From Parcubacteria group bacterium (GTDB lineage Bacteria > Patescibacteriota > Minisyncoccia > Phycocordibacterales > UBA2135): DNA of 64,000 nucleotides. The notes under the pieces are model-generated. The model was not told where the DNA came from, made no database searches, and saw only the letters and a program-made list of their open reading frames with translations. Position 1 is the first letter of the stretch. Each line of letters starts with the position of its first letter. This document shows positions 1,891-54,264 of this stretch, in pieces. The DNA is taken from the NCBI GenBank assembly GCA_016176785.1, contig JACOWN010000005.1:1202-65201 (forward strand). Reading direction: 5' to 3'. The position numbers and the translations under genes are program-made.

Positions 1891-3174
1891 ATGATTGATG
1901 CCGTACTCTACCGCATAAAAAAAATCATCCCGCCGCGGCTTTTTCGCGCCTTGCAGCCGCTCTACCATTACACTCTCGCCTTCCTTGCGGCGCTCGTGTA
2001 CCGCTTCCCCGCGCGAAAACTTATCGTCGTCGGCGTAACCGGCACGAAGGGCAAAACAAGCGTCATTGAGATAGCCAATGCGATCTTTGAGGCCGCCGGC
2101 TACACGACCGCCGTCGCAAACACCGTGCGCTTCAAGATCGGGAACGAATCGCATGACAATGAGTTCAAAATGACGATGCCGGGGCGCTTTTTTCTCCAAC
2201 GATTTCTGCGCCGCGCGGTCAGGCAAAAATGCAACTACGCTTTTATAGAAATGACCTCGGAAGGGGCGAAACTGTTCCGTCACGCCTTCATTGCGCTTGA
2301 CGCGCTTATTTTCACCAATCTTGCGCCGGAGCATATAGAATCGCACGGCGGCTACGAGGCGTATCGCGACGCGAAGCTCTCGTTCGCGCGCGCGCTTGAG
2401 CGGTCGTCCAAAAAACGCCGCGTTATCGTCGCGAACCGCGACGATAACGAGGGCGGGCGTTTTCTTGCCGTTGACGTGCCGGAAAAGTACCCCTACGGCC
2501 TCGCCGACGGAGAGCCGTATGTCGCCAAAAAAGAAGGGCTTGAGTTCACTTTCCGCGGGCGGCGCATCGCGGCGCATTTATCCGGCGTATTCAACCTTTC
2601 AAACATTCTCGCTGCGGCGGCGTACGCGGCAAGCCAGGGCATCGGCGTTGATACCGTCGCGCGCGCGGTTGAATCGTTCCGCGGCATTCCGGGCCGCATG
2701 GAAAAAATAGACGAAGGCCAGCAGTTCACCGTCATCGTTGATTACGCGCACACGCCCGATTCGCTTGAAAAAGTGTACGAGGTGTTCCAGTCGGCGAAAA
2801 AAATATGCGTTCTCGGAGCGGCGGGGGGCGGCCGCGACGCGTGGAAGCGAAAGGAGATGGGCCGCATTGCCGGAAAACACTGCACGGAGATCGTGCTGAC
2901 GAACGAGGACCCGTACGACGAAGACCCCGAGAGCATCGTCCGCGCCGTCGCGGAGGGTATCGCGCGTCCCGTGTATGCCGTTATCATGGACCGGCGCGCC
3001 GCCATCCGCCACGCGCTTCTCCGCGCAACTGCGGGAGACGCGGTCATTATCACCGGCAAGGGAACCGACCCCTACCTTATGGGCCCCAACAACACCAAAC
3101 TCCCGTGGAGCGACGCGGCAGTCGCGCGTGAAGAATTGCGCGCCGTGCTGATGAACGCTACACTTAAAAGTTAA
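1891..3174 (+). CDS. Mur ligase family protein (MurE-like UDP-N-acetylmuramoyl-tripeptide ligase)
   Basis: P-loop VVGVTGTKGKTS, a Mur ligase middle domain and the DYAHTPDSLE motif shared by MurE/MurF-type ligases. At 427 aa it is shorter than canonical MurE. Confidence 0.7.
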   Translation: MIDAVLYRIKKIIPPRLFRALQPLYHYTLAFLAALVYRFPARKLIVVGVTGTKGKTSVIEIANAIFEAAGYTTAVANTVRFKIGNESHDNEFKMTMPGRFFLQRFLRRAVRQKCNYAFIEMTSEGAKLFRHAFIALDALIFTNLAPEHIESHGGYEAYRDAKLSFARALERSSKKRRVIVANRDDNEGGRFLAVDVPEKYPYGLADGEPYVAKKEGLEFTFRGRRIAAHLSGVFNLSNILAAAAYAASQGIGVDTVARAVESFRGIPGRMEKIDEGQQFTVIVDYAHTPDSLEKVYEVFQSAKKICVLGAAGGGRDAWKRKEMGRIAGKHCTEIVLTNEDPYDEDPESIVRAVAEGIARPVYAVIMDRRAAIRHALLRATAGDAVIITGKGTDPYLMGPNNTKLPWSDAAVAREELRAVLMNATLKS

Positions 3175-5185: not shown

Positions 5186-5258
5186 CCGCCCATAGCTCAG
5201 TTGGTAGAGCAGCTCCCTTTTAAGGAGAGGGTCGCAGGTTCGAATCCTGCTGGGCGGA
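5186..5258 (+). tRNA. tRNA-Lys (anticodon TTT)
   Basis: Manual cloverleaf: acceptor CCGCCCA/TGGGCGG, D-stem GCTC/GAGC, anticodon stem GCTCC/GGAGA with one mismatch, loop CTTTTAA (U33, TTT, A37), T-arm GCAGG-TTCGAAT-CCTGC, discriminator A. No encoded CCA. Confidence 0.82.
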
Positions 5259-5328
5259 CAAAAGGAGGTTGGTACGATCACGCAGTCAGGAGAGAAATAC
5301 CGCCTTACAAAACAAGAGGTCTCCTCGG

Positions 5329-11923: not shown

Positions 11924-13606
11924 ATGCCCTCCTTTGACGAAACAAAACAGGAAGAAAAACTTGCCGAACTTCGCGGCGAGGAAGCGGAGAGTTTGGCAAA
12001 AATACTTTCCGAAAAATACAATGTCCCCTACATTGACCTCGCAACCGTCTCAATAGAAAGCGACGCGCTCCGCAATGTTGACGAAGAAACGGCTCGGCGC
12101 GCGCTCATTGCGCCGTTCCAGATCACCGGCAAAGAACTCCATGTCGCGACGGCAACGCCCGAAAAAGACGAAACGACGCGGGCGCTTGAAGAGCTCAGGC
12201 GCGGAGGGTTTACGCTCCATTTATACCTTGCGTCCAAGCGCGGCCTTGAACGCGTCTGGGAACGCTACCAAGAAGTGGCGCGCGCAACGGCGACGGAGGC
12301 GGGCGTTCTGGACGTTTCAAGCGAGCAGGTTGACGCGTTCACCAAACGGATCAAGGCGCTTTCCGACGTCGTCGCCGCGATAGAAGAAGTGCTGGCGGGC
12401 GGGGAAAAATACGAAACGACGCGCGTGCTTGAAATGCTCGTCGCGGGTGCGCTTGCGACCGAAGCGTCCGATATCCACGTTGAACCGGAAGAAAAAAACG
12501 TTACCGTGCGCTACCGTCTTGACGGCGTCCTCCAGGAATTGACGGCGCTCAACGAGAAAGTGTACACGCTTCTCCTGTCGCGCATCAAGCTGATATCGGG
12601 GCTTAAGTTAAACGTCAAAAACGACGCGCAGAACGGCCGCTTCACCATTAAGATTAAGGATGCCGACGTTGAGGTCCGCACGTCAACGGTTCCCGGCGCG
12701 TACGGCGAGTCCGTCGTGCTCCGCATCCTGAACCCAAAAACGATCGCGGTGCCGTTTGAGGAGCTTGGCATGGAACAGGAGCTCCGGACGATCGTTGAAA
12801 CGGAAATGAGGAAACCGAACGGCATGATATTAAACACCGGCCCGACCGGTTCGGGAAAAACGACGACGCTCTACGCCATTCTCCGAAAGATCAACGCGCC
12901 CGGCATAAAAATCATCACCATTGAGGACCCGATCGAATATCATCTGCCCGGCATTACGCAAACGCAAGTGGATCCCGACGCCGGCTACACCTTTATCCAA
13001 GGAATGCGCTCAGGGCTTCGGCAAGACCCCGATGTCATCATGGTCGGCGAGATCCGCGACAACGACACCGCCGATACGGCTATCCACGCCGCGCTGACCG
13101 GCCACCTTGTCCTCTCAACGCTTCACACCAACAACGCCGCCGGCACCATTCCCCGCCTCATTGACCTCGGCGTAAACCCGTCGCTCATCGGCTCGGCGCT
13201 TTCCGTCGCGCTCGCGCAGCGGCTTTTGCGGCGCTTGTGCGCCGCGTGCAAAAAAGAGGATGCGCCCACGGCGGAAGAGCGCGCGCTCATTGCGGCTGCC
13301 CTGCCGCTGCTTGTCCAAAGGGACCCGTCCCTTGACGGGACGCGTGTGTGGAGAGCGGGCAGCTGCGCCGAATGCAACAACACGGGCTACAAAGGACGCA
13401 TCGGCATCTTTGAAGCGATACGCATGGATGCGAAGATAGAAGAGCTCGCGCGGACGAACCCGAGCGAACGGGAAATTAAAAAAGCGGCCCGTTCGCAAGG
13501 CCTGCTCTTTATGCGCGAGGACGGCATCCTCAAGGTATTGCGCGGAGTGACGTCGTTTGATGAACTGCGGCGCGTGATCGACCTCTCGGCGGAGGATGCG
13601 GCATAA
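11924..13606 (+). CDS. pilB: Type II secretion / type IV pilus assembly ATPase (GspE/PilB family)
   Basis: N1 domain, Walker A GPTGSGKTTTLYA, Asp box, Walker B VIMVGEIRD, His box LVLSTLHTNNAAGT, tetracysteine motif CAACKK...CAECNNTGYKGRIGIFE. No pilC/pilM neighbours (orphan). Confidence 0.9.
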   Translation: MPSFDETKQEEKLAELRGEEAESLAKILSEKYNVPYIDLATVSIESDALRNVDEETARRALIAPFQITGKELHVATATPEKDETTRALEELRRGGFTLHLYLASKRGLERVWERYQEVARATATEAGVLDVSSEQVDAFTKRIKALSDVVAAIEEVLAGGEKYETTRVLEMLVAGALATEASDIHVEPEEKNVTVRYRLDGVLQELTALNEKVYTLLLSRIKLISGLKLNVKNDAQNGRFTIKIKDADVEVRTSTVPGAYGESVVLRILNPKTIAVPFEELGMEQELRTIVETEMRKPNGMILNTGPTGSGKTTTLYAILRKINAPGIKIITIEDPIEYHLPGITQTQVDPDAGYTFIQGMRSGLRQDPDVIMVGEIRDNDTADTAIHAALTGHLVLSTLHTNNAAGTIPRLIDLGVNPSLIGSALSVALAQRLLRRLCAACKKEDAPTAEERALIAAALPLLVQRDPSLDGTRVWRAGSCAECNNTGYKGRIGIFEAIRMDAKIEELARTNPSEREIKKAARSQGLLFMREDGILKVLRGVTSFDELRRVIDLSAEDAA

Positions 13607-13632
13607 GCGAGGGTACGCACCTTTAGAAAAAA

Positions 13633-13805
13633 TTTACGCCCCAAATCTCCAGGCAATCCTTTTAAATCCGCAAGCGGACTTAAAGGTAGGTAGACCTCGA
13701 AGGAACACCCCAGTTGATCCCGCGTGTGCAGAATAACCAGGGTACCCTTGAGAAATGCCCGTGAATCAAAAGGTGACTCGATTGCCTGGAGATTTGGGGC
13801 GTAAA
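13633..13805. repeat. Perfect 26-bp inverted repeat (13633-13658 / 13780-13805) enclosing a 121-nt spacer. Candidate structured ncRNA or MITE-like element.
   Basis: TTTACGCCCCAAATCTCCAGGCAATC ... GATTGCCTGGAGATTTGGGGCGTAAA read directly. The stem can extend inward with a bulge (CTTTT / AAAAG). Lies in the pilB-ruvB intergenic region. Confidence 0.5.
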
Positions 13806-13898
13806 CTGCTCGTTCGCGGGCTTTTCACCCGCGACATCCTTCCCATGATACTCCATCCCACCCGGTAAATCTATCACGCCATAAAGTATCATATAATT

Positions 13899-14918
13899 GT
13901 GAATATGTCAACAATCCGTCCTGAACAGCCCGCACATGACGCTTTTCTTGATACGGTCCTCCGGCCTGTCGCGTGGGACGAATACATAGGCCAGGGGCGG
14001 ATCAAGCAAAATCTCCGCATTCTCCTTTCTGCGGCTCGCGAACGGGGGCAGCCGCCGGAACACATCCTTTTTTACGGCCCGCCAGGCCTCGGAAAAACGA
14101 CGCTCGCGCATCTCGTGGCGCACGAACTCGGCGCAAGCGTCAAGGCGACCTCGGGCCCCGCAATTGAAAAAACCGGCGACCTCGCGTCTCTCCTCACCAA
14201 CCTCTCGCCCGGCGACGTGCTTTTCATAGACGAGATACACCGGCTTCCCAAGGCGGTTGAGGAAGTGCTCTACCCCGCCATGGAGTCGGGAACGCTTGAC
14301 ATCATTCTCGGCAAAGGCCCGTCGGCGCGCATCATTCAGCTTGACCTCCCGCCGTTCACGCTCGTTGCGGCAACGACGCGCATCGCGCTTCTCTCCGCGC
14401 CGCTTCGTTCGCGGTTCAGCGGCGGCACGTTCCGCTTGTCGTTTTACTCGCTTGACGAAACGAAGGAAATCCTGCTGCGGTCCGCCCGCATTCTTAAAAC
14501 GGAGCTTGATGCCGAGGCCTGTCATGAGATCGCGCGGCGGAGCCGCCTCACCCCCCGCACCGCAAACTATCTTTTGAAACGCTGCCGCGATTTTGCGCAG
14601 GTGCATAAACAGCCGCTTTCCGCGAATGTCGCGCGCGACGCGCTTGCGCTGCTTGAAATAGACGAACGCGGCCTCGGCGTGCTTGACAGAGCGTTGCTTG
14701 AAACGATCATTGTGAAATTCGGCGGCGGGCCTGTCGGCTTGGGCACGATCGCCGCGGCGCTCTCGGAGGAGCACGCGACCATTGAGGAGGTCAACGAACC
14801 GTATCTCATGCAGATCGGATTTCTTGAGCGCACGCCGCGCGGCCGCGTCGCGACGGAAGCGGCGTACCGCCATCTTAATGCGAAGCTCCCCGCCTCGGCG
14901 CAGGAAAAATTGCTTTGA
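13899..14918 (+). CDS. ruvB: Holliday junction DNA helicase RuvB
   Basis: AAA+ Walker [14 protein letters not shown], Walker [11 protein letters not shown], sensor motifs, C-terminal winged helix. Whole-length RuvB-like. Confidence 0.93.
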
Positions 14919-52504: not shown

Positions 52505-53422
52505 ATGAAATTAATGTCGCACAATCTTCGGGGACTCAAAAAAGAGTTTTTGGAATATCTTGAAATAGAAAAAGGGCGCGCGGCGCGCACCATTGAATTG
52601 TACGACCAGTATCTCGGCAGGTTTCTCCGCTTCCCCGGCCTCAAAAACGCCGCCGACATCACGGACGAATCGGTGCGTCGTTATCGGCTTGCCTTAAACC
52701 GCGCGGGAATGTCCAAAAAAACGCAGAATTTTTACCTCATTGCGTTGCGGCAGTTTTTGAAGTTTTGTGCGCGCCGCGGCATCGCGTCGCTTCCCGCAGA
52801 ACGCATAGAACTTGCGAAACAAAGCGACCGCGACCTTGACCTCATTTCTTCGGATGAGCTTGAACGCCTGCTCGCCGCGCCGTCCGGTTCCGATGAAAAA
52901 AATCTTCGCGACCGCGCCTTGCTTGAGCTCCTTTTTTCAACCGGTCTTCGCGTTTCGGAACTTTGCGCGCTCTCGCGGCATCTTGACTGGAGCCGCGATG
53001 AGATCTCCGTGCGCGGCAAGGGCGGCAAGGTGCGTCTCGTGTTCCTTTCGCCGCGCGCGAAAAGCGCGGTTAAGGCGTACCTCGCGAAGCGTTCTGACAT
53101 CGGCGACGCGCTCTTCGCGCAGGCGGAGCGTCGTGCGAAAAACAAAAGCGTATCCGAGCCGCGCCGCATCACGCCGCGGCTTGTGGAACGCATCGTGAAG
53201 CACCACGCGATACGGGCCGGCATTGATAAGCGGGTGACGCCGCACATGCTTCGGCACATGTTCGCGACCGACCTCCTCCAAAACGGCGCCGACCTTCGTT
53301 CCGTCCAAGCGCTTCTGGGGCATGCGCACATTGCAACGACACAGGTCTATACGCACGTAACGGACAAGCACCTGAAAGACATCCACCGCGCCTTTCACGG
53401 GAAAGGGCTTGGGGAAAAATAA
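52505..53422 (+). CDS. Tyrosine site-specific recombinase (XerC/XerD-like)
   Basis: N-terminal SAM-like core-binding domain. Catalytic R...K...HMLRH..AT..L..G.DLRSVQALLGHAHIATTQVYTHV with the Tyr nucleophile. Confidence 0.85.
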   Translation: MKLMSHNLRGLKKEFLEYLEIEKGRAARTIELYDQYLGRFLRFPGLKNAADITDESVRRYRLALNRAGMSKKTQNFYLIALRQFLKFCARRGIASLPAERIELAKQSDRDLDLISSDELERLLAAPSGSDEKNLRDRALLELLFSTGLRVSELCALSRHLDWSRDEISVRGKGGKVRLVFLSPRAKSAVKAYLAKRSDIGDALFAQAERRAKNKSVSEPRRITPRLVERIVKHHAIRAGIDKRVTPHMLRHMFATDLLQNGADLRSVQALLGHAHIATTQVYTHVTDKHLKDIHRAFHGKGLGEK

Positions 53423-53508
53423 CGTGGGCATGCCCGCGCGGCGAAAAAAGCCAATTGACATCGGTGTTTTTAACTGGTATATTGCAAACGGCTCAAACGT
53501 GAAAATTA

Positions 53509-54264
53509 GTGGAGGATGCGGTGAACAAACATCAAGGGATTGCGGCCCCGCGCCTTCGGGGGGTCGCATCGGTCGTGCTTCTTCGGTTCGGGAGAACCGG
53601 AAAACTCGGCCGAACGGGCGACCTTCTTGTCTGCCTGGTCGGGGAACGCAAAGAGCGTAAGTTCACGGATATCGCAGTGTCCGGCGGAGACGGCGAGGAA
53701 CGCCACATCATCGTCGGCGGCGACTTCGGGCTTCCGGGCGGTAAAATCGAGGACGGCGAGACCCCCGAGCAAGCCGCATGCCGCGAGGGCGAGGAAGAAT
53801 CGTGGATGCGTTTTGGACCGGAGGAACTTTTTCCGCTCGGCTCGTTCCACAAACGAGCGTACGGGGAATCTGACGAAAGAGGCGTCCGAGAAGTCATCGG
53901 CAGGTACCCGCACCATTTCTTTGCGGTGTGGGGAGGCGAGAAAAAGATGGTCCGGCCGGAAACCTGGACCATTCAAGAAACGAGCAGGCCGTTTTGGGAA
54001 TCGTTTGTAGAGGCGGTAGCGGAGGGGCGGGTCATAATGCACGGCTCGCACCGTCAGGCGACCCTTGAGGGGGTTTGCCGCATCGCGAACCTGTATCTTC
54101 TCGGAAGAGATTGCAACCACCCCCTTATGCAGAAACTTCGCGCCGCCGCATCGCGAAGCGCAGCGGCGCGCGAAACGTTGGATGGGCTTGCGCGCGGCCT
54201 CGCGCACTCCCTACTCACCCCGATGCTTAGCTTGCCCACTTCCATTTCCATACCCCGTTTGTAA
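53509..54264 (+). CDS. NUDIX hydrolase
   Basis: Nudix box LPGGKIEDGETPEQAACREGEEESW. GTG at 53521 has GGAGGA 4 nt upstream and may be the real start. Confidence 0.65.
   Translation: MEDAVNKHQGIAAPRLRGVASVVLLRFGRTGKLGRTGDLLVCLVGERKERKFTDIAVSGGDGEERHIIVGGDFGLPGGKIEDGETPEQAACREGEEESWMRFGPEELFPLGSFHKRAYGESDERGVREVIGRYPHHFFAVWGGEKKMVRPETWTIQETSRPFWESFVEAVAEGRVIMHGSHRQATLEGVCRIANLYLLGRDCNHPLMQKLRAAASRSAAARETLDGLARGLAHSLLTPMLSLPTSISIPRL

Follow-up and report, generated by a model that had tools for sequence, protein, structure and literature searches.

The window analysed here is a stretch of 64,000 nucleotides (64 kb) whose RuvB is annotated as 'Parcubacteria group bacterium'. pilB and ruvB lie on the plus strand, and yebC and ruvC come after ruvB. 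The space between pilB and ruvB holds a long inverted repeat, just where an earlier reading made from the letters alone (the sequence-only reading) had placed it.

11924..13606, plus strand: pilB, coding for a PilB-type T2SSE ATPase with an MshEN domain; conserved convergent neighbour of the RNA described below
13905..14918, plus strand: ruvB; its ATG (13905-13907) is complementary to the CAT in the TTGACAT of the RNA promoter
13780..13805, minus strand: P1 5' arm of the repeat, 5'-UUUACGCCCCAAAUCUCCAGGCAAUC-3'; its inner half is the family-conserved box AAAUCUCUAAGCAAY
13633..13658, minus strand: P1 3' arm of the repeat, 5'-GAUUGCCUGGAGAUUUGGGGCGUAAA-3'

A repeat search of the window returned the two arms as 26 nt long, 100% complementary and 121 nt apart. 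With up to three mismatches allowed, the 26-mer occurs in the 64-kb window only at these two positions, and none of 100 shuffles contained a match; the earlier statement that a perfect 26/26 repeat is beyond chance therefore holds. The inward extension of about 70% matched bases that went with it does not, as the ungapped repeat ends at 26 nt. The bases just inside the arms belong to separate local hairpins (P2 and P4) and are not paired with each other. The one open reading frame noted before (13680-13892, minus strand, 70 aa, ATG start) is present and, as had been said, lacks coding signal: it has no Pfam family and its frame is unconserved. Neither this frame nor a further one (13596-13736) gave a Pfam family, and no reading frame is open across the element in the homologs. 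The folding proposed earlier as a check was carried out, and the element folds stably (−96.5 to −99.6 kcal/mol for the core in the window, z = −10.4 on the minus strand).

Eighty metagenomic loci with RuvB relatives were gathered. With nhmmer, weak full-length similarity was detected just upstream of ruvB in 2 of the 80. A repeat search found an inverted repeat of 25–39 nt with arms 80–125 nt apart in all ten of the closest loci; the inner part of the arms is conserved (ATCTCTAAGCAA / TTGCTTAGAGAT), while the outer part varies by genome yet stays complementary. A covariance model (R1) built from 16 sequences identified a single copy in each of 18 loci, and likewise in each of four more loci fetched via named RuvB proteins. 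Loci with a taxon name score 103 bits (Minisyncoccota), 92 bits (Lloydbacteria), 84 bits (Kaiserbacteria) and 52 bits (Curtissbacteria), and these matches place the RNA family in at least two CPR radiations, the Parcubacteria and the Microgenomates. A divergent copy (L029) was recovered by model search with the filters off; its P1 box is changed in a compensatory way (AUCUGUAGACAA / UUGUCUACAGAU). The RNA is present in all 22–23 loci with PilB upstream of RuvB, the divergent copy included, and in 0 of 62 RuvB loci without PilB upstream. The position between pilB and ruvB is the same in 23 divergent loci. In one locus (L022:1-2258) pilB is inverted, on the same strand as the RNA and 60 nt downstream of it, with a small terminator-like hairpin (ACACCUGUUUAGGGUGUUUU) between the two; the three genes remain adjacent despite the rearrangement.

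The homologs align with the window over the full length of a core that is built from four helices. The core measures 132–204 nt among family members.

13633..13805, minus strand: conserved core of the RNA, P1-P2-P3-P4, 173 nt
13763..13779, minus strand: P2, small variable hairpin right after the P1 5' arm, from per-sequence MFE folds
13688..13760, minus strand: P3, long irregular hairpin with a variable apical stem-loop
13661..13684, minus strand: P4, hairpin before the P1 3' arm, of the CUUUN.../...NAAAG type

P1 is the closing helix (24–32 bp across members). Of its 26 pairs, 24 show compensatory double changes, and 90.8% of the cells are paired. P2 is absent from the MFE folds of L017, L018 and L027. 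The P3 hairpin (65–101 nt across members) has a core of two helices, AGGA/UCCU and CUGG/CUGG, with a small asymmetric loop between them. In the window, the first helix joins the AGGA-type box at 13745-13749 to the UCCU box at 13700-13705, and the second joins CUGG at 13736-13742 to CUGG at 13708-13714 as C-G, U.G, G.U and G-C. Invariant positions are the GG/CC within the AGGA/UCCU helix and the G-C beside the tandem G.U; U.G and G.U of the tandem wobble are each kept in 16 of 22 members, and the flanking pairs are compensatory. The apex of P3 tolerates large insertions, one of about 137 nt in the divergent member L029 (RNA at 1931-2191, minus strand), and in L026 it carries a repetitive expansion of the GTTACTAGTAAC type. 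P4 shows double changes in all six annotated pairs; only 66.7% of its cells are paired in the MAFFT alignment because of register shifts. Support is weaker for P2, P4 and the P3 apex (63–67% of cells paired in MAFFT alignments) than for the rest. Hairpin loops are unconserved and the outer stems vary freely, with conserved sequence confined to two duplex segments, the inner half of P1 and the core of P3.

Covariation was scored for a structure of 51 pairs on a MAFFT alignment of 16 sequences. Canonical pairs occupy 84.7% of the cells, as compared with 65.4% in column shuffles and 39–51% when partners are slid by 1–3 columns, and 42 of the 51 pairs show double-sided changes. None of 500 shuffles reached the observed value on any of five measures, although these statistics overstate independence because the aligned sequences are phylogenetically related. 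RNAalifold gave 42 pairs, 33 of them compensatory, for the 16 sequences, and 39 pairs, 32 compensatory, for a realignment of 22 sequences that includes six from outside the model. Thus, there is covariation in several helices among diverged homologs, as is generally asked of a conserved structured ncRNA. The predicted MFE folds leave 1–10 unpaired nucleotides at the junction in 20 of 22 members. The core is modelled as a compact three- or four-way junction of the long P1, an optional P2, the long P3 and P4.

Several independent comparisons of the two strands were made. The minus strand folds better in 14 of 16 members, by 3–22 kcal/mol, with the other two tied; the plus strand of the window folds at z = −7.5. 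Covariance-model scores are 121.7 bits on the minus strand and 46.5 bits on the plus strand of the window, and 50–147 against 14–57 bits across the family; the plus-strand scores are non-zero because the stems are self-complementary. The annotated pairs contain 92 G.U against 28 A.C (p = 4e-9), or 66 against 27 without the invariant wobble columns, a signal to be read with the reservation that G.T wobble is also tolerated in single-stranded DNA. A run of five or more U residues follows the stem in 11 of 22 members on the minus strand, compared to 2 of 22 on the plus strand. These observations point to an RNA encoded on the strand opposite to pilB and ruvB.

Signals for transcription from this strand lie on both sides of the core.

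13883..13911, minus strand: predicted RNA promoter, −35 TTGACA at 13906-13911, 17-nt spacer, −10 TACTTT at 13883-13888
13815..13833, minus strand: P0 leader hairpin, CGCGGG-loop-CCCGCG, between the predicted start and P1
13627..13632, minus strand: U6 tract, immediately after the P1 3' arm

The −10 element is extended by a TG at 13890-13891, and the predicted start is near 13876. The arrangement TTGACA-N16-18-TAnnnT is found in all 18 loci searched, at 15–91 nt, or in one locus 217 nt, upstream of P1, and the same promoter was seen by eye in L090, L092-L094 and L029. In the 18 loci TTGACA is perfect in 17 (TTGACT in L027), and the extended TG is likewise present in 17 (absent in L024). The whole 64-kb window has six such promoter sites where about one is expected, and only two of them have the extended TG. 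The other of these two (53455-53483, plus strand; TTGACA-N17 with TG-TATATT) follows closely on an ORF that ends at 53422 and precedes overlapping ORFs with starts near 53509. A generic promoter scan found no promoter at the element since the −10 hexamer TACTTT matches the consensus at only 3 of 6 positions; the comparative search recovered it. P0-like hairpins are visible at the same position in many homologs.

At the 3' end, the stable P1 hairpin is followed on the minus strand by UUUUUU, and P1 with U6 is, as judged from the sequence, a predicted intrinsic terminator of the minus-strand transcript. It was missed by a generic terminator scan because the stem and loop limits of the scan exclude a 'hairpin' of 173 nt. 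The pilB stop codon is 20 nt from the U-tract, and the space between pilB and the RNA is only 26 nt in the window, so that P1 and its U-tract abut pilB; in several loci the U-tract touches the stop codon of pilB or overlaps with it. In many homologous loci a terminator hairpin of its own, frequently perfect and of bidirectional appearance, stands between that stop codon and the RNA 3' end, as at the following positions.

L019:2088-2129, separate hairpin between pilB and the RNA
L014:2184-2219, separate hairpin between pilB and the RNA
L012:2077-2170, separate hairpin between pilB and the RNA
L017:666-702, separate hairpin between pilB and the RNA
L010:1761-1804, separate hairpin between pilB and the RNA

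As about half of the members have no U-tract at P1 and several of these have such a separate hairpin, the 3' ends of these members may be formed downstream and then processed. A near-perfect duplex of 24–32 bp is a plausible substrate of RNase III, and the mature form may therefore differ from the 173-nt core.

The −35 element of the RNA promoter shares ATGTCAA/TTGACAT with the ATG of ruvB in L090, in L092-L094 and in 11 of the 18 searched loci; in the other 7 of the 18 the ruvB ATG lies outside the promoter. A perfect TATAAT is located at 13892-13897, 7 nt upstream of the ruvB ATG, and there is no Shine-Dalgarno sequence. The Shine-Dalgarno sequence is also unrecognisable at most neighbouring genes, among them pilB (11924), ruvC (15525), tyrS (17627) and a PBP gene (17736), and initiation independent of it seems to be general in this Parcubacteria genome. 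Its lack at ruvB is thus uninformative by itself. We keep a leaderless ruvB mRNA as a possibility only, because the TATAAT-like hexamer is not universal in the homologs and the neighbouring genes also lack a Shine-Dalgarno sequence.

Rfam 15 gave no match at gathering score in the window and nothing for the RNA at permissive thresholds in the window or the homologs; the 6S and 6S-like models gave none at E ≤ 10 in the window or at E ≤ 1 in seven homolog loci. Matches to sR10, DUF2693 and miRNA models are short, below threshold and outside the RNA core, and were rejected. A literature search, of incomplete coverage, returned no earlier description of the RNA family and no report of a 6S RNA in CPR bacteria. 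By these searches, the RNA family at the pilB-ruvB junction is previously undescribed and constitutes a new family of stand-alone structured bacterial ncRNA.

With moderate confidence, we take the inverted repeat to be the P1 closing helix of an independent minus-strand ncRNA gene that occurs CPR-wide and whose product is stable and acts in trans. Of this, the data above show a conserved fold on a defined strand, conserved promoter and terminator motifs that mark an independent transcription unit, and a single-copy, syntenic, vertically inherited element that is missing from Rfam. Transcription would start at its own sigma-70-type extended −10 promoter, with the −35 overlapping the ruvB start codon. 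RNA polymerase would move away from ruvB through a leader of about 70 nt with a small hairpin and then through the 173-nt core, and the transcript would end at the P1 helix and U6, about 20 nt from the pilB stop codon. As the promoter overlaps the ruvB start region back-to-back, polymerase positioned there would probably compete with initiation of ruvB, which we regard as the weaker inference. The RNA would be abundant and stable, its paired ends giving protection, and would act as a scaffold or ligand for a protein reading the P1 box and the P3 core. Sequence conservation in two duplex segments suggests recognition of helices by a protein, and we regard a stable, probably abundant RNA acting in trans through protein binding at these two segments as rather likely. 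The start, the ends and the abundance of the RNA are predictions.

The sequence-only reading had left the choice between an ncRNA, a MITE and a recombination site; the ncRNA with a long closing stem stands, on covariation in 22–23 homologs, and the other two fall. A MITE or another mobile or recombination DNA element would account for the perfect 26-bp terminal inverted repeats, the MITE-typical size and the TA dinucleotide inside both termini, with which a palindromic TA duplication is compatible. Correia-type and other bacterial MITEs are likewise about 100–170 bp long with terminal repeats of about 26 bp and form a long hairpin once transcribed. The multiple copies that had been proposed as the mark of a MITE were not found: BLAST of the whole element against the window gave no second copy, the arm search recovered only the element itself, and there is one copy per locus across about 470 kb of related loci plus the 64-kb window. 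A 20-nt arm probe gave one lone match of 21 nt in 185,579 species genomes (596 Gb; one genome per species), where about one chance match is expected for a 20-mer. This match (CGCCCCAAATCTCCAGGCAAT; L001:3520-3540, Candidatus Aminicenantes MAG CAVUOW010000005.1) is identical to the P1 arm over its 21 nt and lies in an unrelated intergenic context with no inverted partner arm. The two-arm probe had no match in 241 million metagenome records, the arm probe none in viral contigs, and BLAST of the RNA none among annotated phages and plasmids. No direct repeat is common to the flanks AGAAAAAA and CTGCTCGT, hence there is no target-site duplication. Seven population contigs coding for the identical RuvB match the 298-nt spacer at 100%, and an eighth contig, which starts inside the element, matches over its 152 nt; since the seven spanning contigs carry the identical spacer, no empty site is found among the eight. 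The eighth contig (L009:1-152, Logan SRR12113432) begins at about window position 13753, and several other population contigs stop within about 1 kb upstream of the element; the long inverted repeat may break assemblies. The element is furthermore orthologous and syntenic across lineages with only 62–76% RuvB identity, and its arms are compensatory between genomes rather than shared. It differs from Correia-type and other MITEs in being single-copy, syntenic and vertically inherited, with covarying arms and neither target duplication nor empty site. Being single in each locus, always syntenic and free of a target-site duplication, it was rejected as a MITE, and we assign mobile or recombination DNA of any kind a negligible probability. 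A DNA-level recombination site was rejected because G.U pairing is strand-asymmetric, covariation supports the four-helix fold and the element has its own promoter and terminator.

The location directly upstream of ruvB would also suit a cis-regulatory leader (riboswitch or attenuator) in the ruvB 5' UTR, or a plus-strand terminator of pilB, and the good folding of the plus strand and its non-zero covariance-model matches agree with either. A leader of ruvB would be on the strand of ruvB, however, and all strand indicators favour the opposite one. Read on the plus strand, the element is less stable in 14 of 16 members, A.C mismatches take the place of G.U pairs, the invariant CUGG/CUGG becomes CCAG/CCAG with two mismatches, a U-tract is left in just 2 of 22 members and the conserved promoter points the other way; in addition, a closing helix of 26 bp is too stable for switching. 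We consider this very unlikely, and the 'riboregulator for ruvB' suggested earlier cannot be a 5'-UTR element of that gene, as the RNA is on the minus strand and antisense to ruvB. Less improbable, yet still unlikely, is a CPR 6S RNA that binds RNA polymerase holoenzyme by open-promoter mimicry and is too diverged for Rfam. 6S RNAs generally show little sequence conservation, and small hairpins are frequent in their central region; 6S RNA is without a report in the CPR literature that we searched. The size (about 150–190 nt), the long closing stem, the long terminal hairpin and the strong housekeeping-type promoter fit as well. The ranges for the family are 132–204 nt for the core, 24–32 bp for P1 and 65–101 nt for P3. 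The 6S models, on the other hand, stay silent at permissive E-values in the window and seven homologs, and P1 is without the bulges typical of 6S closing stems. The junction has only 1–10 unpaired nucleotides in most members and its branch helices covary, which argues against a large single-stranded central bubble; in the predicted folds P2 and P4 branch off where the bubble would be, and P4 covaries. The earlier label '6S-like' is therefore dropped, a tightly paired multi-helix junction replacing the open central bubble. The strongest competitor, which we nevertheless hold to be distinctly less probable than an RNA acting in trans, is a local role, in which the element is a cis-encoded antisense or transcription-interference module that insulates pilB from ruvB. 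Its promoter would occlude the ruvB start and its transcription would collide with read-through from pilB; the RNA would be fully complementary to the pilB-ruvB read-through transcript, with a structure serving mainly termination and stability. The element exactly fills the pilB-ruvB spacer in 23 of 23 loci and adjoins both genes even where pilB is inverted; the −35 overlap with the ruvB ATG (11 of 18 searched loci and four loci seen by eye) and the U-tract at the pilB stop codon in several loci fit such a role, too. A terminator or insulator, however, needs neither a P3 core conserved in sequence, its tandem G.U invariant, nor a P1 box conserved across lineages with 44–57% PilB identity, the promoter misses the ruvB ATG in 7 of 18 searched loci, and in many loci the interval from pilB to the RNA already contains a terminator hairpin of its own.

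The stand-alone trans-acting RNA, as favoured here, can be compared with several known RNAs. It resembles 6S RNA (ssrS; RF00013) in length, in having its 5' and 3' ends in a long closing stem, in its long terminal hairpin, and as a stand-alone gene with a strong promoter whose product is probably abundant (predicted here) and conserved mainly in structure. It differs in the tight three- or four-way junction, the bulge-free P1, the two sequence-conserved duplex segments and the lack of a covariance-model match. As in bacterial Y RNAs of the YrlA type, the long stem made by the two ends includes a conserved duplex, a possible protein site, and the interior has several helices and variable loops. 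Unlike Y RNAs, the RNA lacks an Rfam match and conserved loops resembling a T-loop or D-loop, and hence a recognisable tRNA-like module, and no rsr (Ro) gene is adjacent in 23 of 23 loci, where the neighbours are pilB, ruvB, yebC and ruvC. Orphan ncRNAs of the raiA, OLE and ROOL type, which come from comparative genomics, share a covariation-defined fold, a restricted range and a conserved neighbourhood. Compared to these, the sequence and the fold are different, the range is CPR/Patescibacteria only, the position is unusually fixed and the promoter overlaps the start codon of the neighbouring gene.

CPR/Patescibacteria account for a large part of the diversity of bacteria and are mostly uncultured episymbionts with tiny genomes; to our knowledge, almost nothing is known of their non-coding RNAs. 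That an RNA with a near-consensus promoter, a covariation-supported fold of four helices and a single locus has been kept through extreme genome reduction suggests that its function is important. Tentatively, and with somewhat less than even confidence, we propose that the RNA represents a CPR/Patescibacteria-specific class of housekeeping-type ribonucleoprotein RNA of a standing comparable to 6S or Y RNA. If so, a dedicated putative protein partner would read both the P1 box and the tandem-G.U core of P3. The fixed place beside ruvB-yebC-ruvC and a four-way-junction shape with two long opposed arms also bring to mind a link to Holliday-junction processing, for example as a junction mimic titrating RuvA or RuvC; this is speculative, and we give it very little credence. 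An RNA of about 170 nt is a concrete handle for pull-downs, structure determination and quantification in metatranscriptomes, and a new lineage marker. The promoter within the start codon is an arrangement of compact, overlapping divergent signals that could couple the expression of the recombination helicase and the RNA.

Two-arm motif scans of viral sequences returned a contig (L095:2378-2568; IMGVR_UViG_3300025132_001261), a putative phage contig, with a closing stem of about 30 bp that carries the P1 inner box (CUCUAAGCAAAAU / AUUUUGCUUAGAG). It was one contig in scans where about 1–3 pattern matches are expected by chance. Its interior of 136 nt is different and multi-hairpin, and the covariance model gives no match; the fold has z = −7 to −8 on both strands. 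The contig is from the same CPR-rich sample series, and the neighbours of the element are hypothetical ORFs and a DUF932 protein. This element may represent a relative or decoy of the P1 box carried by a phage, or it may be coincidental.

A tRNA elsewhere in the window (5186-5259, plus strand) was called 'tRNA-Stop' with anticodon tta by ARAGORN and scores 71 bits with the Rfam tRNA model. Its canonical cloverleaf has the acceptor stem CCGCCCA/UGGGCGG, the anticodon stem GCUCC/GGAGA and the 7-nt loop CUUUUAA with the anticodon UUU. As the canonical cloverleaf gives UUU, the simplest reading is an ordinary tRNA-Lys rather than a suppressor.
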